From an uncultured Nitrospinota bacterium (GTDB lineage: Bacteria > Nitrospinota_A > UBA7883 > JAJRTC01): DNA of 22,299 bases. The stretch lies in assembly GCA_964395915.1 (NCBI GenBank), contig CAYNDB010000030.1:1-22299 (forward strand), written 5' to 3'. Position numbers and translations under genes: made by a program. Below are positions 1,168-22,299 of this stretch, piece by piece. Every line of letters begins with the position of its first letter. Position 1 is the stretch's first letter. Below the pieces are notes generated by a model. The model was given only the letters and a program-made list of their open reading frames with translations, ran no database searches and was not told the DNA's origin.

Positions 1168-2970
1168 CTATTTGTCTCCCCTTTCTTTTAAAGATATCGC
1201 TTCGATATTATGAAGTTTTGCTCTGACAGATTCCCTGTCCAGATCCCGTCCGTCATTGTTGTCCGACTTGAGTGATCGCTTGTATGCGTTTATAGCGGCG
1301 GTACGATCTTTAAGAGAGGAATAGATGTCTCCTAAATGTTCGAATACTGTAGGGTCCGGCGGAATGTTGCGCACTGCGATAAGCAACTGCTTTAAGGCCT
1401 CATCATAGCGGCCCTGTTTGTAATATATCCATCCCAGCGAATCAATAAAATATCCGTTTTCAGGCTCAAGCTCGAGGGCGCTCATAACGTAGCTTTCCGC
1501 CTTATCAAGGTCCTTCCCTTGTTCCGCATAAATATAGCCAAGGTAGTTCAATGCATTAGCGTGTTTTGGGTCGAGTTCTATAACTTTTTTCATCGACTCA
1601 ATACATTTATCGTACTGCTTCATCTTTTCATACAAAATACCTAGATAAAAATAATACTTCCCTTCATCTTTATTTAAAGCCAGCGCCTGCAAAAACGCTT
1701 CCTCAGCCTCCTCGTTGTTATTGAGCTTGTCCTGAAGTATGCCAACAAAATAATGAAGCTCCGGGTCTTTAGGGTCCAGCTCAACCGCCATTTCGGCGAA
1801 TTTCCGAGCTTCTTCAATATTGTCGGCCTTGGAGTACAGCTCGGAAATCTTCACATAGATTTCACGAGTGTCCGGGCCGCCAGTTATAAGGCGTTTCCAG
1901 ACTCCTATCGCCTCGCTCAGCAGGTCCAAGCGTTCAAAAATCGTGGCTATGTAAAACGCGACCCGCCTGTTTCCCGGATCTTTCGCGCGGACCAGCTGGA
2001 AGTGCTCCAACGCTTTTTTCAAGTCGCCCACAACACCCATGACCTCGGCCTGCCGCCAATAGGTTAAAGCCAATTTGAAATGCAGGTCCAGGTCATCCGG
2101 CTCATTCTGGACAAGGCTCTCAAGCTGACCTATCGCTTTGTCGTATGATTCCTTAAGAAGATACGCTTCAGCCAGCAAAACGCGAATCTCCTCAGACTTG
2201 GGATTTACTTTCAGGTACTTTTCATACACCGCGATAGAGGCGTCAATTTTTTTCTGTAAACGGTATACGAGAGCAAGCCCCGCGTGGCCCTTCGAAAATC
2301 TTGGGAATTGTTTTATCAGGTCTTCAAACGCTTCTTCAGCCTTGTCAAGCCGCCCAAGGGAAATCAACGCGCGGCCTTTATAATAGAGGCCTAGCGCGTC
2401 ATGCGGGAAAAACTTGTTATACTTTTCCAACGCCTGTAGAGCTTTCTCAAACTGTTTATCTTTAAGGTAAGCGACCGCAAGGTAAATCCAGGAGTTTTTT
2501 TGCTCCGAATCAAGCGCCAAGGCTCGTTCAAAGTACTTGACGGCTTCCCCCGGCTGGTTGATCCCCGAATAAATACCACCGAGAATAGTAAGTAAAGGAA
2601 CATTATCCCGGTCTATTTCTATCCCCCTGCTCGCAATGTCAATCGCGTTGTCGAGCTGCCCCATTCTGAGGAAAAGAGTGGCGGTCTTCTCATAGGCTTT
2701 TAGAATGGATTCGTCATAATCCACCGCCAGCAGAAAATGCTCTATAGCTTTATTATATTTCCCTTCTTTTTCGCTAATCAGGCCACGAAGGTAATGGTAA
2801 TACGCGTCGGACCTGTCCTTCGGCTCCCAAGCCATAACAGATTCCGGTTTACCGCCATCTTTAAGGATTTTACCTTTATCCGCCAGATCAGATGACGCTG
2901 TGGCGCAAGCGGTCACAAAAAAAGTGAGCGCCAAAAGAAGGATATTTCGTAACAATTTCATACGTAACAT
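1168..2970 (-). CDS. Tetratricopeptide-repeat (TPR) lipoprotein
   Basis: The 600-aa protein carries many 34-residue TPR-like repeats (recurring W/LG/Y/A/F/A/P positions, 'AL..DP..A.A...LG..Y'). Its N-terminus 'MKLLRNILLLALTFFVTACATA' is a signal peptide with a lipobox. The real start is probably the second Met, at 2961. Confidence 0.8.
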   Translation of the reverse strand: MLRMKLLRNILLLALTFFVTACATASSDLADKGKILKDGGKPESVMAWEPKDRSDAYYHYLRGLISEKEGKYNKAIEHFLLAVDYDESILKAYEKTATLFLRMGQLDNAIDIASRGIEIDRDNVPLLTILGGIYSGINQPGEAVKYFERALALDSEQKNSWIYLAVAYLKDKQFEKALQALEKYNKFFPHDALGLYYKGRALISLGRLDKAEEAFEDLIKQFPRFSKGHAGLALVYRLQKKIDASIAVYEKYLKVNPKSEEIRVLLAEAYLLKESYDKAIGQLESLVQNEPDDLDLHFKLALTYWRQAEVMGVVGDLKKALEHFQLVRAKDPGNRRVAFYIATIFERLDLLSEAIGVWKRLITGGPDTREIYVKISELYSKADNIEEARKFAEMAVELDPKDPELHYFVGILQDKLNNNEEAEEAFLQALALNKDEGKYYFYLGILYEKMKQYDKCIESMKKVIELDPKHANALNYLGYIYAEQGKDLDKAESYVMSALELEPENGYFIDSLGWIYYKQGRYDEALKQLLIAVRNIPPDPTVFEHLGDIYSSLKDRTAAINAYKRSLKSDNNDGRDLDRESVRAKLHNIEAISLKERGDK

Positions 2971-2973
2971 TTC

Positions 2974-2993
2974 AAGCCGGGACGCGGCTTTTT
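2974..2993 (+). terminator. Terminator-like GC hairpin (AAGCCG-GGACG-CGGCTT) followed by TTTTT; as a terminator it is oriented for the plus strand
   Basis: Read directly from the sequence: a 6-bp GC-rich stem, a 5-nt loop and a 5-T run. It lies 4 nt upstream of the TPR gene start on the opposite strand, so its role is unclear. It could be an RNA hairpin in the TPR 5' leader or an antisense terminator. Confidence 0.25.
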
Positions 2994-3124
2994 AAACATG
3001 GGCCTGCGCGCCGCAATGCCTTTTCCAATTGGTAGCAAAACCACTGTTTTTGGAATTTGCGCGGGTGGTACAAATGCCGCTAAAAAGCCTGCCACTATAA
3101 AAATAACAACTTGTGAAATCACAC

Positions 3125-3604
3125 CTAATCTCTGCCCTTTTTTCCTATACTTCTTAGAATAACCCGTTTAAAAGTAGAACACAATTGAGAATCGGAAACC
3201 GACGACAAAGCGTTTTCCATCTCCATTCTCTCAGGTTCTGTAAGAGGTTTTTCCTCGGCGGGGGGATTTCTGTCGACCCTACTTGATGGAATTGCGACTT
3301 TATTATTTTGAACTATCATTACCTGTTCCACCTCAGGCCCTCTAAACATTGCGTTTACCTTGGATCTTATTTCCGACCTTAGAAATAACATGGAGTTTAC
3401 CCACACAGCCTCCGTAGCCCAGATAGTAAGCGTCCCCTTTTCCACTCTGGCAGGGCGCGACACCATGGCAAGTTGAGGCCCCACCACTTCCCCCCAGCGA
3501 CGCTCTAACTCCATCAGCCTGGAAAGGTCTCCCTTAAAAGAAGACCTGAACGCGGAATCCAGAACCGAACCGATGCTTTTGGGTTTTCTGGAATTTCGTT
3601 TCAC
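3125..3604 (-). CDS. DUF721/DciA-like protein
   Basis: The core 'LMELERRWGEVVGPQLAMVSRPARVEKGTLTIWATEAVWVNSMLFLRSEI...VNAMFRGPEVEQVMI' matches the DUF721 pattern (W..vvG..la..s.p..v..g.L.v.v.s.w...l....l....N). The gene is transcribed divergently from the gcv operon. Confidence 0.5.
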   Translation of the reverse strand: MKRNSRKPKSIGSVLDSAFRSSFKGDLSRLMELERRWGEVVGPQLAMVSRPARVEKGTLTIWATEAVWVNSMLFLRSEIRSKVNAMFRGPEVEQVMIVQNNKVAIPSSRVDRNPPAEEKPLTEPERMEMENALSSVSDSQLCSTFKRVILRSIGKKGRD

Positions 3605-3698: not shown

Positions 3699-4112
3699 AT
3701 GACATTCCATACAGAATACCTGTGGTTCAACACAACCCGGAAGCGCGAATATATCAATATTACTGATAAGGTAGAAGGCATTGTCCAGGCTTCCAGTGTG
3801 AGTGAAGGAATGGTATTGGTATCGGCAATGCATATTACCGCCGGGGTATGGGTGAACGATGCGGAAGGCGGATTGCTTTCCGATATAGATAAATGGTTGG
3901 AAAATCTGGCTCCCTATGACCCAGACTACCAGCACCATCGCACAGGTGAAAATAATGGAGACGCACACCTTAAAAACCTTCTGGTTCACAACCAGGTCAT
4001 GCTCCCTATAACCGGAGGCATGCTCGACCTTGGCCCATGGCAGCAGGTTTACTACGCTGAATTTGACGGACGACGGAAAAAAAGAGCCGTTGTAAAGGTG
4101 ATGGGAGAATGA
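3699..4112 (+). CDS. yjbQ: YjbQ/UPF0047 family protein (secondary thiamine-phosphate synthase-like)
   Basis: The 137-aa protein shows YjbQ hallmarks: 'ITDKV...[25 protein letters not shown]...L..LAP....YQHH...[14 protein letters not shown]...[21 protein letters not shown]'. Its stop overlaps the gcvT ATG (ATGA). Confidence 0.8.
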
Positions 4113-5254
4113 CAGTACGCAACACGCCGCTTTATGGCATTCATAAAAAGCTGGGGGCGAAAATGGTCGATTTCCATGGCTGGCGCATGCCTGTTCAATA
4201 CAGCTCCATTCTGGAGGAACATAAAAGCGTGCGAGAGAAAGTCGGAATATTCGATGTTTCGCACATGGGCGAGATCGAGGTTAAAGGGGAACACGCCAAA
4301 GAGCTTCTTCAATGGCTTACCCCAAACGATTTGAACCAGCTTGAGGATGGGCGTGTTCAATATTCCGCCCTTATGAATGAAAATGGAGGAGTAATCGACG
4401 ATCTCTTGATATATGCGATAAGCAAAGAAAGATATTTCTTGTGCGTCAACGCTTCCAATGTAGGCAAGGATGTCAACTGGCTTGCCGACCACGCCTTGCA
4501 ATACCCTGATGTGGAGGTGGTAAACGTCTCTCGCCGATATGGAATGATATCCGTGCAGGGGCCGAACGCCGAATCGCTTTTCAGAACTTTAACCAAGCTC
4601 GATGTTACCAAGATGGAGTATTACACCTTCTCGGTAGTCATGATTGGTGAACATAATTGCATCCTTTCACGCACAGGGTATACGGGCGAAGACGGTTTTG
4701 AAATATTCTGCGAGTGGAGAGACGCTCCGCAACTGTGGGAATATATCATGGGTAAGGGAAAACATTTCGGCATCAAACCTATCGGTTTGGGAGCGAGAGA
4801 CACGTTGAGGATGGAAATGCGATACCCGTTGCACGGACAGGAGCTTGACGAAAATACAACGCCGCTGGAAGCCGGGCTTGACTGGATAGTCAAGCTGAAC
4901 AAGGAAAGTGAGTTTATCTGTATGAACGCGCTTTTAAAACAGAAAGAAAACGGGGTCGATCGTAAAATCGTTGGTTTAACAATGATGGGCAGAGGTATCC
5001 CTCGGTCGGGATACGCTGTATTTCATAACGATGAGAAAGTAGGAGAGATTACCAGCGGAACAATGAGCCCGACGTTAAAAAAGGCTATTGGAATAGGTTA
5101 TGTCCGCCCAGACCTCGCTGTTACAGGGACTACGCTTTACGTTGAAATAAGGGGCGCAAAAGTTGAGGCGGAAGTAAGCAAGACTCCTTTTGTGGAATCC
5201 CATGTAAAAAGGAGCAAGCCTGCCGAGGCGCTTCAGCAAAAAACGGTCGAATAA
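4109..5254 (+). CDS. gcvT: Glycine cleavage system T protein (aminomethyltransferase)
   Basis: N-terminus '[55 protein letters not shown]' is a canonical GcvT N-terminus. The gene sits immediately upstream of gcvH, gcvPA and gcvPB. Confidence 0.95.
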
Positions 5255-8962: not shown

Positions 8963-9038
8963 GGCCCCATCGTCTAGTGGCCTAGGACGCTGCCCTCTCA
9001 CGGCGGAAACAGGGGTTCGACTCCCCTTGGGGCTACCA
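8963..9038 (+). tRNA. tRNA-Glu (anticodon CUC), CCA encoded
   Basis: Hand-folded cloverleaf: acceptor GGCCCCA/TGGGGCT, D-stem GTCT/GGAC, anticodon stem CTGCC/GGCGG with loop CTCTCAC (anticodon CTC), 4-nt variable loop, T-arm AGGGG-TTCGACT-CCCCT, discriminator A and CCA. Overall architecture is nearly identical to E. coli tRNA-Glu. Confidence 0.9.
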
Positions 9039-15265: not shown

Positions 15266-16513
15266 TTACACGTTAGATGAACGGCCCCCTTTAGAGCCGA
15301 TGGTTTCTTCCGGGTAGGCGTCGATATTATGGATGGAAAGATCGGAACCCTCAATTTCCTGCTCTTTAGTCAGGCGCAATCCAATGGTAATGTCGATAAG
15401 CGTATACACGCAATAACCGGCGACAAGCGCAACCATAACCCCCGCTCCGGTTCCTATTAGCTGCGAGAGAAGTGTAACGTCGCCCATTCCACCAAGCTGT
15501 TTGAGCCCAAAGATACCGCAAGCGACGCCGCCCCACGCTCCGCATATTCCATGCAGTGGCCAGACACCGAGCACATCGTCTATTTTGAGTTTCTCCTGCT
15601 CAAATATAAACCCTTTGACAAAAATTATTCCGGCGACACCGCCGACAATCAACGCGCCCAGCGGATGATATTGATCCGATCCAGCGCAGACAGCCACCAG
15701 CCCCGCTAACGCTCCGTTATGGACAAACCCGGGATCGTTTTTGGAGATAACCAGCGCGGCGATGATCCCACCCACCATAGACATCAGAGAATTTACAGCA
15801 ACAAGCCCCGTGATACCGGTGATCTGTTGCGCGCTCATTACGTTAAACCCGAACCAGCCGATGCAGAGCATCCATGTGCCCAGCGCCAGCATTGGTATGT
15901 TGCTTACCGGTATCGGCCTGGATACGCCATCGACCCAGCGGCCATTGCGCGCTCCCAACTTAATGACAGCCACAAGGGCAAGCCATCCTCCCATGGCGTG
16001 GACAACCACCGATCCTGCGAAATCATGAAAGGGAGCCCCTCCGATTCTTTCAAGCAAAGACCCTTCCTGGCCGAGCAATGTGAGCCTGCCCCAGACCATT
16101 CCCTCGAAAATGGGATAGACAATAGCGACGAATATCATCGAGGCCAAAACCTGGGGCCAAAACCTGGATCGTTCCGCAATTCCGCCAGAGATGATAGCTG
16201 GAATGGCGGCGGCAAAAGTTAAAAGAAAGAAAAATCGGGCAAGGTCGTAGCCTCGTAAAGAGCCGACGATCTCTTCGGCGGAGCCGAAAAATGTCAAACC
16301 ATACGCAAGAGGAAAACCTATGAAAAAATAGATAACCGCCGAGAATGCGAAATCGGACAAAATCTTCACGAGAGCGTTAACCTGATTCTTCTTTCGTACA
16401 GTGCCAACCTCCAGAAAGGCGAAGCCTCCGTGCATTGCAAAAACCATCACCGCTCCCAACATCAGGAACAAAACATCCGCGCTGTTTTTAAGTTCGCCTA
16501 TTTCCGCCATCAT
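15266..16513 (-). CDS. amtB: Ammonium transporter (Amt/AmtB family), no cleavable signal peptide
   Basis: The 415-aa polytopic protein has Amt hallmarks ('FLMLGAVMVFAMHGGFAFLEVG', 'DFAGSVVVHAMGGWLALVAVIKLGAR', 'GVWPLHGICGAWGGVA'). It sits 59 nt downstream of glnK, the classical glnK-amtB pair. Confidence 0.92.
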   Translation of the reverse strand: MMAEIGELKNSADVLFLMLGAVMVFAMHGGFAFLEVGTVRKKNQVNALVKILSDFAFSAVIYFFIGFPLAYGLTFFGSAEEIVGSLRGYDLARFFFLLTFAAAIPAIISGGIAERSRFWPQVLASMIFVAIVYPIFEGMVWGRLTLLGQEGSLLERIGGAPFHDFAGSVVVHAMGGWLALVAVIKLGARNGRWVDGVSRPIPVSNIPMLALGTWMLCIGWFGFNVMSAQQITGITGLVAVNSLMSMVGGIIAALVISKNDPGFVHNGALAGLVAVCAGSDQYHPLGALIVGGVAGIIFVKGFIFEQEKLKIDDVLGVWPLHGICGAWGGVACGIFGLKQLGGMGDVTLLSQLIGTGAGVMVALVAGYCVYTLIDITIGLRLTKEQEIEGSDLSIHNIDAYPEETIGSKGGRSSNV

Positions 16514-16572
16514 GTACCTTTAACGCATGAATTGTTTATAAACTCGTTTCTTCAAAATCGAACAGGATCGAT

Positions 16573-16983
<411 letters not shown>

Positions 16984-17007
16984 TCATCTCCACCTGCGTT
17001 ACAGGCT

Positions 17008-18768
17008 TTAATTCATTTTCTTCGATTCTGAGCCGATGCCCATTCCCTTCGTCAGGTTGCTGTCTCCCAATATGGCGAACGCTCCTTCAAGGCTGCCCCC
17101 GCCAGAGCCGCTTTGGACCTGAACGCGCGGCGTTTTTACGATGTCAGGATTTTTGACCGCCGCCCGAAGAAGCTTGTCGATAACGGCAAGCTGCATCGTC
17201 TTGTCCTTGCCAAGCACGGCCACCTGGGCGCTCTGCCCTTTGGCGATCTCCTGTAGCTTCAGCTTTTCACCCTGCCCTTCAAACTGCTTGGCCGCCATAC
17301 GGTGTTTCGCCGACTTCTCTTCGATTTTAGCTTCCATCAGCGAATGCTGCTGATTGGCTTCCGCAATCGCCTTTTCAACTTCGATACGCTTTTTCTGGGC
17401 CGCTTCTTCCTCTATAAAGGTTTGCTGCATCTGCTTGGCCAGTTGTTCGCGTTTACGCGCCACCAGAAGCTCTGGCGGAATAACAGGATCGCCAAACCGC
17501 ACATCTCTGACGATCAAGCCAAATTTGGCCCCCTGCGCTTTAAGCGCCGCCAACACCTTATCCTCCAGATAAGCGCGTTTATTGCGCAAATCGAGAACAC
17601 GGGTTCCCTTAGCGGCTTTTGCGGCTTCTCCACGAGCCTGGTACTCGGCGTTGATAATATTTTTCACAACACTGCGGACAAGCGGCGTAAAGATTTTCTC
17701 TTCGAGCTGTTCGAGGTTGCCAATGGCGGCGAAAATAACCGGCGCGTTCTTTGGATCAACCTGCACGAGGGCCCGCATTTCTATAGGGACCTCCCATCCA
17801 TCAACCTTGAGTATTATTGCGCTGTCAGCGGCGTTTGCCGGGATGGATACTCCTTCCGATTTAATTTTCTGATCGATCTGCCCGTCCCGCTTGACGGTAA
17901 GATCTATCCACCGTTTCGTATACCCGCCAACGTAACCCAAAGTCTGAACTCGCGAGGGTATGGGGATGATTTTGTATGCGCTCTCGCTCATGTAATAAAC
18001 ACCCGGAGCCAGAACCTTGCTCCAGACGCCGCGGCAGCCCTTTGGAACAAGCCGGACAGAAAAGGAAACACCTTTCTGCAGTGGCACAGGTTCGCACTTG
18101 GCGCCGACCGGTGATGGAGCCATTGACTTGACTACGCCCACATATCCCGGCGGCACCTTCCGCGCCGGTTTGTTTTGTATCGAAAAAAGATAGGGGTTAT
18201 AGCGATATTTGCCCGGCTTCAACACCGTGGACTGAGGGCCTTTCTGCCCCTTGCCTTCACCCAGAAAGTATTCCGCTTTCAGCATATCGTTTTCCGAGCC
18301 CGCTTTCCATCTGTCGGCGAAATTCTGCCCGTCCCGTAACGGAAGACCGTCTTTGGCGGTAATCATTCCATAGCTGCCCAAGGAGACTTCATGCACAGGA
18401 AAGGATTCCACATCGTACAACACGTTCAGCAGAGGCTTGAAATTAAGTCCAGGCCCCAATATTTCGGCCTGCGGGCCGGTCTCACCATTAACTGCGATTA
18501 TCCGTCCGCTCTCCAGGCTTTTAAAGCCATACACCTTGCTGAGCGAACCTATTTTATCGGAGTCGATAACGACATACGACGTGTTGACGGCAAGAAGCAA
18601 GGCCACAAAAGCCAGGGCGCCACGCAAAGGCATGCGCATCCACCCAAGCGGTATTTCTTCTCCGGCGCGGGTCACATGCTTGTCACTTATCTTGAAATAA
18701 TCGGGTATCATGCCTGGCAAAAATATAGCTGCGCCAGCGCATACGACCACTAAAAACAAAGCGTCCAT
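17008..18768 (-). CDS. Flotillin-like SPFH/band-7 family membrane protein (YqiK-like) with N-terminal TM segments and a C-terminal coiled-coil
   Basis: Two N-terminal hydrophobic segments. The SPFH core is 'IPIEMRALVQVDPKNAPVIFAAIG...FTPLVRSVVKNIINAEYQARGE...LIVRDVRFGDPVIPPELL', followed by an E/A/K/Q-rich coiled-coil. The start is 11 nt downstream of the octahaem cytochrome stop. Confidence 0.75.
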   Translation of the reverse strand: MDALFLVVVCAGAAIFLPGMIPDYFKISDKHVTRAGEEIPLGWMRMPLRGALAFVALLLAVNTSYVVIDSDKIGSLSKVYGFKSLESGRIIAVNGETGPQAEILGPGLNFKPLLNVLYDVESFPVHEVSLGSYGMITAKDGLPLRDGQNFADRWKAGSENDMLKAEYFLGEGKGQKGPQSTVLKPGKYRYNPYLFSIQNKPARKVPPGYVGVVKSMAPSPVGAKCEPVPLQKGVSFSVRLVPKGCRGVWSKVLAPGVYYMSESAYKIIPIPSRVQTLGYVGGYTKRWIDLTVKRDGQIDQKIKSEGVSIPANAADSAIILKVDGWEVPIEMRALVQVDPKNAPVIFAAIGNLEQLEEKIFTPLVRSVVKNIINAEYQARGEAAKAAKGTRVLDLRNKRAYLEDKVLAALKAQGAKFGLIVRDVRFGDPVIPPELLVARKREQLAKQMQQTFIEEEAAQKKRIEVEKAIAEANQQHSLMEAKIEEKSAKHRMAAKQFEGQGEKLKLQEIAKGQSAQVAVLGKDKTMQLAVIDKLLRAAVKNPDIVKTPRVQVQSGSGGGSLEGAFAILGDSNLTKGMGIGSESKKMN

Positions 18769-18779
18769 TACTATTCTCC

Positions 18780-20024
18780 CTAATGTTTTTCTTTATGTTC
18801 ACGCAGCTCATCTATCATGCGGATAAGTTCAAGCTTGTTACGCGCGAGTTCGTAGAAACCATGCCATTGCGCATAATCAGCGCCCATCATAAAGACTCCA
18901 TGACGCGCCCTGCGGCCTTCATGGTGCCAATATTCAAAGAACTTGAACTCCAGCTCCTCGTCAAACTTCTCCTTTGTCAGAAGACCGTCCTCGTAAAGCT
19001 TGTCCATCTTCTCTTTTATCGGGTCGTAGAACTTTTCGTTGTATAGCTTCACAGCGTCGTCCGCCTGTTTGTAAAAACCTTTCACCCAGTTAATCGAGTG
19101 ACAGTTCAGGCAGACCTCCTGCATCTCTTTACGGTTTTCTTCCCAGTTCTCGCGCGGGACGCTTCTCGGGCTGGAAAGTTTCCATGAAAGACGCAAGTTT
19201 ATATTGTGCGTCGCCTTGACCTTGCCGATGCCCGACATATGACAAGTGGCGCAGGTGGGAGCGCGATAATATTGGACATCCCAGTTGCTGCCGGCCACGT
19301 CCCAGTCCCATTCCTCCTTTTCACTTTGATAAATAACTCCATGCTTCGATTCGAGATAAATCTCGATCTGCGGATGATCCGGGCCGATGTGGCAGGTGCC
19401 GCATGTCTCCGGTTTACGCGCTTCGCCGATTGAAAATTTGTGACGTGTATGACAGGCGGTGCAAGACCCCTTGCTTCCGTCCGGGTTCACTCTTCCGATC
19501 CCCTGGTTTGGCCAGGAGCCGAACTTGAGCGTCCCGCCTGGCCCCATTTCCACTGTCGAGCCGTGACATTTTTCACACCCGACTATCGCCGCCTCTTTTC
19601 CTTCAATTGTGTAGCCGAGAACATTGTCCATAACTCGGCCTTCCGGCGTTTCTTTGCTTATGAAAGTGGCCGCCTTCGCGTGGTGGCTTTCCTCGAATTC
19701 GCGCACTTCCTGTGGATGACAGCGAGAGCAATCGCGCGGGCTTACAATGACGGAAATAAGCGCCCCCTCATGTTCCTGCGCGTCGACATCGGTTCTTTCG
19801 GCCTTGTGGCAGTCAAAACATGTCACACCGCCGCGCGCGTGTTGGCTCTTTTTCCAGTCATTAACGATACCGGGGGATTTTTTTTCATGACATGTCATGC
19901 ACCGTTCGGCGATTGCTTCCTCCTTGGCGCGGACAGAGCTTTTATCGGCAAAAGCAGTTTGGGCGAACCCTATTCCCAATGCAACAAGCATCACGCTAAA
20001 AAACACTTTTTTCTTCATTAACAA
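18780..20024 (-). CDS. Periplasmic octahaem c-type cytochrome, HAO/ONR-family-like (candidate nitrite/hydroxylamine oxidoreductase)
   Basis: Sec signal 'MLMKKKVFFSVMLVALGIGFAQTAFA'. Eight CXXCH motifs (CMTCH, CFDCH, CSRCH, CEKCH, CTACH, CGTCH, CATCH, CLNCH) sit in about 390 mature residues, with the closely spaced haem 5/6 pair and helical C-terminal tail seen in hydroxylamine-oxidoreductase-type octahaem proteins. It is too haem-dense and too short to be pentahaem NrfA. An AGGAG RBS precedes it. Confidence 0.7.
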   Translation of the reverse strand: MLMKKKVFFSVMLVALGIGFAQTAFADKSSVRAKEEAIAERCMTCHEKKSPGIVNDWKKSQHARGGVTCFDCHKAERTDVDAQEHEGALISVIVSPRDCSRCHPQEVREFEESHHAKAATFISKETPEGRVMDNVLGYTIEGKEAAIVGCEKCHGSTVEMGPGGTLKFGSWPNQGIGRVNPDGSKGSCTACHTRHKFSIGEARKPETCGTCHIGPDHPQIEIYLESKHGVIYQSEKEEWDWDVAGSNWDVQYYRAPTCATCHMSGIGKVKATHNINLRLSWKLSSPRSVPRENWEENRKEMQEVCLNCHSINWVKGFYKQADDAVKLYNEKFYDPIKEKMDKLYEDGLLTKEKFDEELEFKFFEYWHHEGRRARHGVFMMGADYAQWHGFYELARNKLELIRMIDELREHKEKH

Positions 20025-20057
20025 CGCTCCTTTATCTTAATTTCCAGCCAATACCGA

Positions 20058-20597
20058 TCAGCCGAAATACATTTTGTTTTTATGTACTATATTTCTGTGG
20101 CAATGTACGCACTTGCCTTTATCTCCCTCAAAACCTTTTGAGTGGGCCAAAAAGCCTCCACGCGGAAGCCCTGAAGGGAACGGGTTCTTGTGACACTTTA
20201 TGCACGAATCGTTCGTCATACTGTGACGGGACATTTCGGCCATTTCTTTTCTGTCCAGGTTTTCCGGATCGCCGAGATAGTGAACATAGGTATCGCGTAC
20301 GCCAAATATTGTCTTCGCTTTGAGCTTGGCCAAAAAACCGGTCGGCAAATGGCAATCGGAACATTCGGCTACGACACCTGTATTGTTGTCGTAGTGAGAC
20401 GATACTCTCCACTCACGAAACATTTCCTCCATCTCGTGGCAGTTGACCGTGCAAAAATCAACCGACGAGGTGAAATCAACCGACCAGGTAAGGACTAAGT
20501 AAAAGCCGCCAATAGCAAATGCCGTAAGAGCCGAAGTGATGGCGACTACTTTTGGATTAGCCTTTTTGAGGATTTTTTCGCCAGTTATTCTTACCAT
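20058..20597 (-). CDS. nrfH: NapC/NirT/NrfH-family membrane-anchored tetrahaem cytochrome c (quinol dehydrogenase)
   Basis: N-terminal TM anchor 'VVAITSALTAFAIGGFYLVL'. Four CXXCH motifs (CTVNCHEM with the NrfH-type CXXCHXM first haem; CSDCH, CIKCH, CVHCH). The start is 9 nt after the amt stop. Confidence 0.85.
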   Translation of the reverse strand: MVRITGEKILKKANPKVVAITSALTAFAIGGFYLVLTWSVDFTSSVDFCTVNCHEMEEMFREWRVSSHYDNNTGVVAECSDCHLPTGFLAKLKAKTIFGVRDTYVHYLGDPENLDRKEMAEMSRHSMTNDSCIKCHKNPFPSGLPRGGFLAHSKGFEGDKGKCVHCHRNIVHKNKMYFG

Positions 20598-20606
20598 AAT
20601 CCGCTC

Positions 20607-21914
20607 TTACCTGAAGGAGCCCAGCGAAGAATCTGGATAGGAGTTGGCTCCGTGCTCGCTAAAGTCGAGCCCATTATATTCGTCTTCAGCGGAGACCCTG
20701 AGACCGCTAAACCTGTCTATTGCCTTGAGCAGGACAAACGTTGTGGGAAAAACCCAGAGAAAACACGCCGCTATACCGATTAGCTGGACACCGATAATTT
20801 TCAGCGAAAACATTTCGGCGCTGTTGAAAAGCCCCACAGCCAGTGTTCCCCATGCTCCACAAACACCATGCACCGAAATGGCGCCGACAGGATCATCCAC
20901 TTTAAAGCGTTCGATTATCGGCACGAAAACCACCACAAGGACTCCCGCAACGGCGCCGGTTATGATCGCAAATAGTGGCGAGAGGCTGGCGCACCCTGCG
21001 GCAATGCCGACAAGGCCGGCCATCGCCCCGTTGAGACTTGTTCCCACGTCTGGCAGACCATACCGCATCCATGCCACTACCATTGCGACAACCGTTCCCG
21101 CCACTGCCGCAAGAGTGGTGTTTATGACAATCAACGCTATGTCGCCATCGCCGACCATCGCGTTTCCGGTATTGAAACCGTACCAGCCAAACCATAGAAT
21201 CATCACGCCAATGGCGGCGAGAGGAAGGTTGTGCCCCGGCAGCGCTTTTATGACGCCATCCTTGCCAAACTTGTCGTTGCGCGGGCCAATGGCGATCGCT
21301 CCCGCAAGAGCCGCCCATCCGCCGACACTGTGAACAACTGTGGAGCCGGCAAAATCAATGAAACCGAGGCTCTCAAGCCACCCGTTTCCATGATACATAC
21401 TTCCCCAGGCCCAGCTTCCGAAGACCGGATAAATAATCGCGGCGAGAGCGGCGGTATAGATAAGATGTGCGATAAACCGTGTTCTTTCCGCCATTGCGCC
21501 TGAAATAATAAGGGCGACAATTGAGCAGAACAGAAGCTGGAGCATCCAGAAAGAGTAGTGTTGATAGTCGCCATCATGGGCAAAGCCTGTGAGAAAAAAG
21601 CCATCAGAGCCAAACAGGCCGGAGCTGGATTCTCCGAACATCAGGCCAAAACCTATCGCCCAATACGCAAACGCCCCGATAGAAAACCCGATGATGGTTT
21701 TCATTATGACGTTCGACGCGTTTTTAGCCCGTGTAAGACCCGACTCCATCAACGTGAACCCCGCCAGCATGATAAAAACAAGACAGGCGGCGATGATCGT
21801 CCATATTGAATTCAGATGGTTCTGGACATCCAACGCATCTGGTATTTCCGCCGCAAACGCATTTTCAGCTATCGCCAAAAACGCAATACAAAATATAATT
21901 ATTCCGTTTTTCAT
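20607..21914 (-). CDS. amt: Ammonium transporter (Amt family) with a cleavable N-terminal signal peptide
   Basis: The 435-aa protein has the signal 'MKNGIIIFCIAFLAIAENAFAAE', then Amt core motifs ('DFAGSTVVHSVGGWAALAGAIAIGPR', 'SVHGVCGAWGTLAVGLF'). It is the first gene of the minus-strand cluster. Confidence 0.9.
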   Translation of the reverse strand: MKNGIIIFCIAFLAIAENAFAAEIPDALDVQNHLNSIWTIIAACLVFIMLAGFTLMESGLTRAKNASNVIMKTIIGFSIGAFAYWAIGFGLMFGESSSGLFGSDGFFLTGFAHDGDYQHYSFWMLQLLFCSIVALIISGAMAERTRFIAHLIYTAALAAIIYPVFGSWAWGSMYHGNGWLESLGFIDFAGSTVVHSVGGWAALAGAIAIGPRNDKFGKDGVIKALPGHNLPLAAIGVMILWFGWYGFNTGNAMVGDGDIALIVINTTLAAVAGTVVAMVVAWMRYGLPDVGTSLNGAMAGLVGIAAGCASLSPLFAIITGAVAGVLVVVFVPIIERFKVDDPVGAISVHGVCGAWGTLAVGLFNSAEMFSLKIIGVQLIGIAACFLWVFPTTFVLLKAIDRFSGLRVSAEDEYNGLDFSEHGANSYPDSSLGSFR

Positions 21915-22026
21915 AATAGATACACTTTAATTACGAGCGTTGTCTCCTGGTGAAATTCAAAAAACACACCAATCGAACATGTGGATTAACTAAAACTTCA
22001 AACAAAATGAAAGTTGAAACATTCAC

Positions 22027-22051
22027 GTATTACTTCAGCCAGAAGTAATAC
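22027..22051. promoter_or_regulatory. Perfect 10-bp inverted repeat GTATTACTTC-agcca-GAAGTAATAC in the predicted amt 5' leader
   Basis: Read directly from the sequence. It lies between the sigma-54 element and the amt start codon, so it would be transcribed as a stable 10-bp stem-loop or act as a DNA operator for a dimeric regulator. A second inverted repeat, GATCCA-N16-TGGATC, follows at 22053-22080. Confidence 0.4.
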
Positions 22052-22106
22052 CGATCCAAACCGTAACTTTTATCTGGATCACTCTCCCCATAGATGACCA
22101 TGTAAG

Positions 22107-22123
22107 AGCAATATGTTTGCCAA
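22107..22123 (-). promoter_or_regulatory. Sigma-54 (RpoN) -24/-12 promoter candidate, about 180 nt upstream of amt
   Basis: The minus strand reads TTGGCAAACATATTGCT, i.e. TGGCAA-N5-TTGCT. This is GG-N10-GC with a near-perfect match to TGGCAC-N5-TTGCA. It is correctly oriented for the amt/nrfH/octahaem/flotillin/glnK/amtB transcription unit. Coordinates may be off by 1-2 nt. Confidence 0.6.
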
Positions 22124-22171
22124 AACGCAACTCATTGAATATGAAGGTGTTATTATTAACGCGGCAAATCG

Positions 22172-22210
22172 GACGCCTATATATTAGGCGTCAAAAGTGG
22201 AGGACGCCTA
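22172..22210. promoter_or_regulatory. Enhancer/UAS-like triple motif GACGCCTA-TATAT-TAGGCGTC-AAAAGTGGAG-GACGCCTA, about 50-90 bp upstream of the sigma-54 -24 element
   Basis: Read directly from the sequence: a perfect 8-bp inverted repeat with a 5-bp AT spacer, plus a third direct copy 10 bp further on. Position and geometry fit a dimeric bacterial enhancer-binding-protein site. It is not the NtrC consensus TGCACC-N5-GGTGCA. Confidence 0.5.
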
Positions 22211-22299
22211 AACTTTGCGCAAAAAATAGGCTTAATTTATGGAATTGCTTGGGATGGAACCGCTGCCTGTGAAAATCAAGATTTTCTTTTACAGAAAGG

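Follow-up and report, generated by a model that had tools for sequence, protein, structure and literature searches.

Two questions are raised by the stretch of DNA analysed here, 22,299 nt from an uncultured Nitrospinota bacterium (contig CAYNDB010000030.1), which is referred to below as the window: what controls the ammonium transporter gene amt, which begins a putative operon near the end of the stretch, and does the unusual palindrome upstream of this gene point to a regulator that is new? An earlier reading made from the letters alone (the sequence-only reading) described the region from 21915 to 22299 as a sigma-54 promoter preceded by a triple repeat and followed by a leader with inverted repeats, and took the mismatch between the repeat and the NtrC consensus to mean that a different or undescribed enhancer-binding protein acts here. 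The analysis reported below argues instead for an ordinary NtrC/sigma-54 nitrogen-limitation promoter, in which the palindrome would be a variant form of NtrC site that occurs in many genomes, and this reading is given a probability of roughly 0.78. Coordinates are positions in the window, and the promoter and operon are read on the minus strand. Comparison was made with L001, a contig of a near-identical strain, and with L002-L010, which are contigs carrying Amt homologues of 62-70% identity.

A candidate sigma-54 promoter and its upstream dyads

The proposed control region contains the following elements.

22122..22107, minus strand: predicted sigma-54 (-24/-12) promoter TGGCAAACATATTGCT, with its GG at 22121-22120 and its GC at 22109-22108
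22128..22140, minus strand: IHF-like sequence ATTCAATGAGTTG, with one mismatch to WATCAANNNNTTR, ending 5 nt 5' of TGGCA
22172..22192, no strand: proximal (strong) dyad GACGCCTA-ATATA-TAGGCGTC, a perfect 8+5+8 palindrome
22175-22189, no strand: core of the proximal dyad, GCCTA-N5-TAGGC, centred on 22182 at about -86
22206..22220, minus-strand reading: distal dyad D1, GCGCA-AAGTT-TAGGC, 8/10 core positions, centred on 22213 at about -117
22217..22231, minus-strand reading: distal dyad D2, GCCTA-TTTTT-TGCGC, 8/10 core positions, centred on 22224 and overlapping D1

The sequence TGGCAAACATATTGCT has the GG-N10-GC arrangement of sigma-54 promoters and differs from TGGCAC-N5-TTGCW at one position; it is the sole match with no more than one mismatch in the 22.3-kb window, where 0.55 would be expected. 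Transcription is predicted to begin near 22096, as judged from the C of the -12 GC at 22108, and the leader would therefore be about 182 nt long, since the amt ATG is at 21914. This agrees with the sequence-only reading, which had placed the promoter about 180 nt 5' of the ATG and had named a sigma-70 promoter close to the ATG as a finding that would count against it. A search of the coding strand between 21850 and 22299 returned neither a sigma-70-like promoter nor a terminator-like site. The promoter is also kept in L001, and TGGCA-N6-TTGC elements are present upstream of the first operon gene in L002, L005, L006, L007 and L009.

Read on the plus strand, the repeat is GACGCCTA-TATAT-TAGGCGTC-N10-GACGCCTA and lies 50-88 nt 5' of the promoter TGG. 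All three exact copies of GACGCCTA, which had been described as a palindrome plus a third copy 50-90 bp 5' of the promoter, could be located, at 22172-22179 (+), 22185-22192 (-) and 22203-22210 (+); the two further exact copies in the window are both intragenic. Chance was estimated from 5000 first-order Markov resamplings of 21915-22299. The triple 8-mer within 45 nt arose in 4/5000 resamplings, the 8+5+8 palindrome in 37/5000 and a perfect 10-bp hairpin, such as the one in the leader described below, in only 14/5000; these features are real, and each of them is unlikely by chance. Taken together, the elements support a sigma-54 promoter that would drive amt and, upstream of it, an enhancer built from repeated half-sites in dyad arrangement.

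The third half-site stood as an exact copy, but it is better read as the good half of the weaker second dyad D1, 31 bp upstream of the proximal dyad, because a second dyad 31-32 bp away recurs in L002, L005 and L009. A repeat search also returned D1 and D2 together as a 26-bp palindrome, GCCTA-N5-TGCGCA-N5-TAGGC (22206-22231), which can be understood as a pair of weak dyads that overlap, their centres being 11 bp from each other. D2 is 42 bp upstream of the proximal dyad, at about -128, and may be bound by a third dimer. The central TGCGCA of this palindrome could be a weak half-site common to the two overlapping dyads, which are one helical turn apart.

An AT-rich stretch between the enhancer and the promoter had been put forward as a possible IHF site. 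The stretch is 63% A+T, but it is not distinctive, because the whole intergenic region is 62% A+T. Matches to WATCAANNNNTTR are no more frequent in the window than expected by chance (19 found against 24 expected). At the aligned position L005 has ATTCAACAGGTTA, which also ends 5 nt before TGGCA, and the IHF-like site is missing in L002 and L009. IHF could conceivably assist at this promoter.

The dyads recur at orthologous loci at near-constant distances, measured here between the centre of the dyad and the T of TGGCA.

Window: proximal dyad at 60 nt; second dyad (GCGCA-AAGTT-TAGGC) at 91 nt
L002: proximal dyad at 60 nt; second dyad (GCCTC-AATGT-GAGGC, 4078-4092) at 92 nt
L009: proximal dyad at 61 nt; second dyad (GCTCA-TTTGT-TAGGC, 4960-4974) at 92 nt
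L005: weak site in the proximal position, at 60 nt; strong site in the second position, at 91 nt

The window, L002 and L009 thus each have a GCCTA-N5-TAGGC dyad 60-61 nt from TGGCA, and a second, more degenerate dyad 31-32 bp from the first. L005 has the same gene order as the window, and its dyads align at the same two positions with strong and weak sites swapped, so that the perfect copy is the distal one. Absence of the palindrome from orthologous loci had been set beforehand as a refutation of the proposed enhancer; GCCTA dyads are present in L002, L005 and L009.

The composite arrangement is also found far beyond these relatives. One genome per species, for 185,579 species, was scanned with the pattern GCCTA-N5-TAGGC-N{46,60}-TGGCA-N6-TTGC, and at least 119 loci carried it. 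Among the matches listed, the gap has a peak at 52 nt (26/119), which is also the gap in the window; the bins at 53-55 hold 10-12 each and those at 46-51 and 56-60 hold 1-10 each. As the gap peaks sharply and is not uniform, the two halves of the pattern are not unrelated. Downstream open reading frames (ORFs) could be called at 114 of the 119 listed loci and were compared with reference proteins. The first or second gene was P-II-, Amt-, GlnA-, UrtA-, NrtA-, NarK- or NirB-like at 35/65 of the listed loci with a gap of 51-55 and at 8/49 of those with other gaps (Fisher p = 4e-5), which gives nitrogen-assimilation genes downstream in 43/114 among the matches listed. These targets are glnK/glnB, amtB, glnA, urtA, nrtA, narK and nirB, and the consensus of their 43 sites is T-GCCTA-AaatT-TAGGC-A, that is TGCCTAAaatTTAGGCA.

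Among the matches listed, Alphaproteobacteria predominate as hosts (Sphingomonadales, Rhodospirillales with Magnetospirillum, and Hyphomicrobiales/Rhizobium), Zetaproteobacteria are frequent too, and there are single cases in Binatia, Udaeobacter, Cybelea and a Nitrospirae metagenome-assembled genome, which is the source of the L002 contig. Judged from these matches, the GCCTA-type enhancer is common outside the Gammaproteobacteria. GCCTA-N5-TAGGC followed at 52 nt by a sigma-54 promoter can serve as a compact and specific signature of nitrogen-regulated promoters, with a reach that takes in Alpha- and Zetaproteobacteria, Nitrospirae, Binatia, Verrucomicrobia and other groups, and motif scans tuned to E. 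coli would miss such promoters.

Two further groups of loci were noticed in the scan. Five Rhizobium loci (L015, L023, L027, L072 and L126) share a strongly kept sigma-54 promoter that has GCCTAAGAAATAGGCA at a 60-nt gap, and a conserved GCAATCGCACAAAA upstream; the nearest callable downstream ORF is only about 77 amino acids long in L027, L072 and L126. Methyloceanibacter and relatives (L021, L038, L076 and L097) share a near-identical block of about 130 nt containing GCCTAGGTCCTAGGC and TGGCAACCC-N-TTTGCT at a 49-nt gap. This block adjoins an apparent divergent start codon (CATGGTTTCCTCTCC), and the downstream-gene test does not class it as a promoter of nitrogen genes.

Hairpins in the amt leader

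Three features were located between the predicted start and the amt ATG.

22052..22081, minus strand: leader hairpin 1, a stem of 10 pairs, 3 of them G-U, and a loop of 10 nt, at about +16 to +45
22027..22051, minus strand: leader hairpin 2, GTATTACTTC-TGGCT-GAAGTAATAC, 10 perfect pairs with a 5-nt loop, at about +46 to +70
21943..21948, minus strand: Shine-Dalgarno-like AGGAGA, 28 nt 5' of the ATG, which is unusually far, and the only good one

Both inverted repeats that had been described in the leader are present. The arms GTATTACTTC and GAAGTAATAC of hairpin 2 are at 22027-22036 and 22042-22051, abutting hairpin 1, and GATCCA-N16-TGGATC (22079..22052) lies inside hairpin 1. The further suggestion, that they form an extra attenuation or operator layer, fared less well. 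Such a layer, in the form of RNA bound by a protein or ligand or of a DNA operator for a repressor (22027-22081), would be in keeping with the two abutting 10-bp stems, which together fold at -22.8 kcal/mol (z = -4.7), with the rarity of the perfect hairpin in the resamplings, and with an unusually long leader in which AGGAGA is displaced from the ATG. It would also fit the difference between the window and L001, where an A to G change at 22073 keeps the stem paired (A-U to G-U), accompanied by one loop change; however, one compensated change is no statistical evidence.

The comparison with other loci points the other way. The hairpin sequence was found only in L001 among 129 loci searched, and the orthologous leaders (L002, L005, L006, L007 and L009) are shorter and have no comparable structure (z from -1.3 to +2.0). 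No similar repeat was found elsewhere in the window, and the fold of the whole leader is ordinary (z = -1.1). No U-tract or terminator-like site follows the hairpins, and the best Rfam matches for 21880-22299 at E <=5 had E >=0.9 and scores far below the gathering thresholds. The sole Rfam match at the gathering threshold in the whole window is a tRNA gene at 8963-9035. The targets of ANTAR antiterminators are tandem hexaloop hairpins, unlike the 10- and 5-nt loops found here. An attenuator, a riboswitch and an ANTAR target were each considered and set aside on these grounds (no terminator or U-tract, no Rfam family, the loop sizes).

Aligned with that of L005, the leader of the window is longer by two blocks, one of about 55 nt and one of about 24 nt. 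As GGAGG is only 5 nt before the ATG in L005, the shorter block seems to have been inserted between AGGAGA and the ATG (21915-21942). The hairpins are most likely a strain-specific structure of the 5' untranslated region, either an mRNA stabiliser or a by-product of inserted sequence, and are probably not a conserved regulatory layer; that they form a real layer of control is considered unlikely.

The identity of the activator

The enhancer has several properties expected of NtrC. The site cGCCTA-ATATA-TAGGCg reads GC-N11-GC with an all-A/T spacer, as in the generic 17-bp NtrC dyad, and its core has the geometry of the E. coli NtrC box GCACC-N5-GGTGC, from which it departs only at the three inner bases of either half-site. 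NtrC enhancers are expected 80-150 nt 5' of a sigma-54 promoter at a fixed phase and in two or more sites; here the dyad centres lie near -86, -117 and -128, the strong dyad being accompanied by the weaker ones 31 and 42 bp upstream. The genes downstream in the window include amt, glnK and a second amt, which are nitrogen-assimilation targets; amt and glnK belong to the core of what NtrC controls.

A number of observations weigh against this assignment. Only 4/12 positions agree between the enteric consensus TGCACC-N5-GGTGCA and CGCCTA-N5-TAGGCG, the outer T/A of TGC-N11-GCA are replaced by C/G, and the 8-bp arms (GACGCCTA) exceed the 5-6 bp conserved elsewhere. No NtrC, NtrB or RpoN gene lies within the window, and no ORF containing GAFTGA was found in the window or in L001-L010. 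A literature search on the motif in connection with NtrC or sigma-54 returned only primer matches, and GCCTA-N5-TAGGC was not found as an NtrC site. The GCCTA palindrome is missing from L003, L006 and L007; L006 and L007 retain sigma-54 promoters, and the sequence ahead of the L003 operon yielded none. The start position, too, is a prediction from the promoter sequence.

Some of these points can be set beside wider data. The outer C/G in place of T/A is also seen in several nitrogen-gene sites of other genomes among the matches listed. Among the scanned loci, ORFs with GAFTGA occurred in two unrelated cases only. The divergent upstream gene was also considered as a source of the regulator and rejected: in L005 it reads by eye as an AmmeMemoRadiSam/MEMO-type gene, and the corresponding ORF of L001 looks spurious. 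Because the literature search turned up no paper with this motif as an NtrC site, the link to NtrC is drawn from regulon content and geometry. The enhancer of the window is, by its sequence, not of the enteric subtype, and a mismatch with the enteric consensus is no evidence for a new regulator.

The GCCTA boxes might instead belong to a distinct class of NtrC DNA specificity, or to a paralogous nitrogen-responsive activator, that is spread across several phyla and placed rigidly at about -86, with the longer 8-bp arms as a local feature and the strain-specific tandem-hairpin leader adding control after initiation. This combination is regarded as quite unlikely.

Also unlikely is the proposal of the sequence-only reading itself, that the palindrome is the site of an undescribed enhancer-binding protein with a regulon distinct from that of NtrC. 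It would account for a half-site, GACGCCTA, that departs from the enteric TGCACC and for arms longer than the conserved 5-6 bp core, and it can draw on the lack of an ntrC gene in the window to examine and on the outcome of the literature search. Against it, among the matches listed this core stands, with its spacing unchanged, in front of glnK, amtB, glnA, urtA, nrtA, narK and nirB, and these targets are those of the proteobacterial NtrC regulon (PMC5343134). The core agrees with GC-N11-GC and has a centre rich in A/T, and its geometry and position match those of the E. coli glnK promoter (glnKp), with a spacing of 60 nt against 61. A separate regulon for the extended palindrome had also been envisaged. 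A metagenome scan with GACGCCTA-N5-TAGGCGTC-N{35,65}-TGGCA gave no sign of one, as it returned only the contig itself and two intragenic chance matches in GC-rich genomes. The inference of an undescribed protein from the mismatch is thus not upheld by the NtrC geometry, the spacing or the NtrC-regulon genes downstream across genomes.

It is very improbable that the palindrome acts in RNA, to terminate or process a transcript arriving from upstream, or that it is an operator for a repressor and has no connection with sigma-54. GACGCCUA-AUAUA-UAGGCGUC could pair as an 8-bp stem, and the sequence beyond 22299 is poorly defined; however, the search for terminator-like sites gave none, the bases GCCTA/TAGGC and their distance to TGGCA (not mere pairing) are kept across phyla, and a second dyad lies three helical turns off in four loci.

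The activator is probably an NtrC orthologue, and control by NtrC and sigma-54 could proceed as follows. Sigma-54 RNA polymerase would sit as a closed complex on TGGCAA-N5-TTGCT (22122..22107). When nitrogen is scarce, phosphorylated dimers of the NtrC family would bind the strong GCCTA-N5-TAGGC dyad at about -86, and more dimers would occupy D1 and D2 (about -117 and -128), the weaker dyads that overlap each other, which lie on the same helix face, 31 and 42 bp off. The dimers would form an active ring and contact the polymerase by looping out about 50 bp, possibly aided by a bend at ATTCAA-N4-TTG, and ATP hydrolysis would drive the opening of the promoter. The transcript would start near 22096, with a 182-nt leader, and would cover a six-gene nitrogen-scavenging set.

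The operon and comparison with known systems

The six genes presumed to be under this control are as follows.

20607-21914, minus strand: amt, 435 amino acids, Pfam PF00909 Ammonium_transp (E = 3e-109)
20058-20597, minus strand: NapC/NirT-type cytochrome, from Pfam
18780-20024, minus strand: octahaem cytochrome of the hydroxylamine oxidoreductase (HAO) family, 414 amino acids, eight CxxCH motifs, matching PDB 4qo5 (E = 3e-46)
17008-18768, minus strand: SPFH/Band 7 protein, from Pfam
16573-16911, minus strand: glnK (P-II), from Pfam
15266-16513, minus strand: second amt, from Pfam

The intergenic gaps within 15266..21914 (minus strand) are 9-96 nt, which suggests that the six genes form a single transcription unit. 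The exact Amt protein is found on one other public contig, L001. The cassette of amt, NapC/NirT-type and octahaem cytochrome genes is carried by all of the contigs L002-L010 and always stands beside glnK or another amt; in L002, L003, L006 and L009 it comes after glnK-amt, and the promoter region then precedes that first gene.

Some observations were made in passing at these related loci. In L002 (5935-5985), L003 (5895-5935) and L004 (3270-3315), the short spacer that separates the upstream amt from the 435-aa amt is taken up by G+C-rich inverted repeats, which may be intra-operon processing or stabilising hairpins. Just 5' of amt in L004 (3150-3225), where no gene is called, the sequence reads by eye as the C-terminus of an ammonium transporter (...GLDLAEHGEAGYRM*) and may be what is left of a truncated amt. 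In L003 the related operon is preceded by a long and very A+T-rich region (2406-3258), in which neither a sigma-54 promoter nor a GCCTA dyad is recognisable; control of the operon is therefore not uniform in the clade.

As a regulatory annotation for an uncultured organism, the analysis describes the ammonium transporter, GlnK and octahaem reductase operon as a nitrogen-starvation unit. For this reason the HAO-family cytochrome is argued to serve nitrogen scavenging (nitrite or hydroxylamine to ammonium) and not energy metabolism. The octahaem protein matches hydroxylamine oxidoreductase structures at E of about 1e-29, and its best solved relative, 4qo5, is deposited as a "hypothetical multiheme protein". 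In the proposed scheme the membrane NapC/NirT-type cytochrome would oxidise quinol and the octahaem protein would be the nitrite/hydroxylamine reductase. Three things are considered worth keeping: the signature of a dyad, 52 nt and TGGCA, the conserved layout of two dyads 31 bp apart, and the placing of an octahaem cytochrome and two amt genes under such control.

The nearest parallel for the cytochromes is the octahaem nitrite reductase (ONR) gene clusters of Nitrospira, as they are termed in PMC12903955. There too an HAO-family octahaem cytochrome stands beside ammonium-transporter genes in a nitrogen-assimilation context, the 414-aa protein of the window being likened to ONR by family and gene context. 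The position of the cassette behind an NtrC-type promoter suggests an assimilatory nitrite/hydroxylamine reductase like that of Nitrospira.

For the enhancer, the alphaproteobacterial sites offer one comparison. The NtrC regulon of Alpha- and Betaproteobacteria, as reconstructed in RegPrecise, comprises glnA, amtB, glnBK, urt, nrtABC, narK and nasDE/nirA, and so includes urea and nitrate ABC transporters and an assimilatory nitrite reductase (PMC5343134). A study of Sinorhizobium meliloti gives the NtrC box as TGC-N11-GCA, its centre being rich in A/T, and shows by electrophoretic mobility shift assays and footprinting that NtrC of this species binds it (PMC10746234). A primer in Table S2 of the same paper reads TTGCCCATTATTTCGGC. 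The scan consensus TGCCTAAAATTTAGGCA fits TGC-N11-GCA and its A/T-rich centre, and the core of the window site is identical to the core of this consensus; the window differs in having outer C/G for T/A and in its extended GAC/GTC arms.

The arrangement of several dyads on one helix face, with the strong and secondary sites 31 bp apart and weak sites that overlap, is like that of the E. coli glnAp2 enhancer, where some three helical turns separate the two strong NtrC sites and weaker sites are present as well. The glnAp2 sites are at -108 and -140. The window differs from it in having one perfect site and an enhancer nearer the promoter, at about -86 and -117.

The E. coli glnK promoter, which depends on NtrC, is a further parallel. 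Upstream of glnK-amtB in E. coli K-12, GCACT-GTCAT-AGTGC is centred 61 nt 5' of the T of TGGCACACCGCTTGCA. The two differ in the half-sites, which are GCACT/AGTGC there and GCCTA/TAGGC in the window, where the outer bases are C/G and not T/A; in the addition of cytochromes and an SPFH protein to the window operon; and in the 182-nt window leader with its two hairpins. They share P-II and ammonium-transporter targets, a promoter of the -24/-12 type, half-sites of 5 nt separated by a 5-nt spacer, and a distance from the dyad centre to TGGCA that is 61 nt in E. coli and 60 nt in the window.

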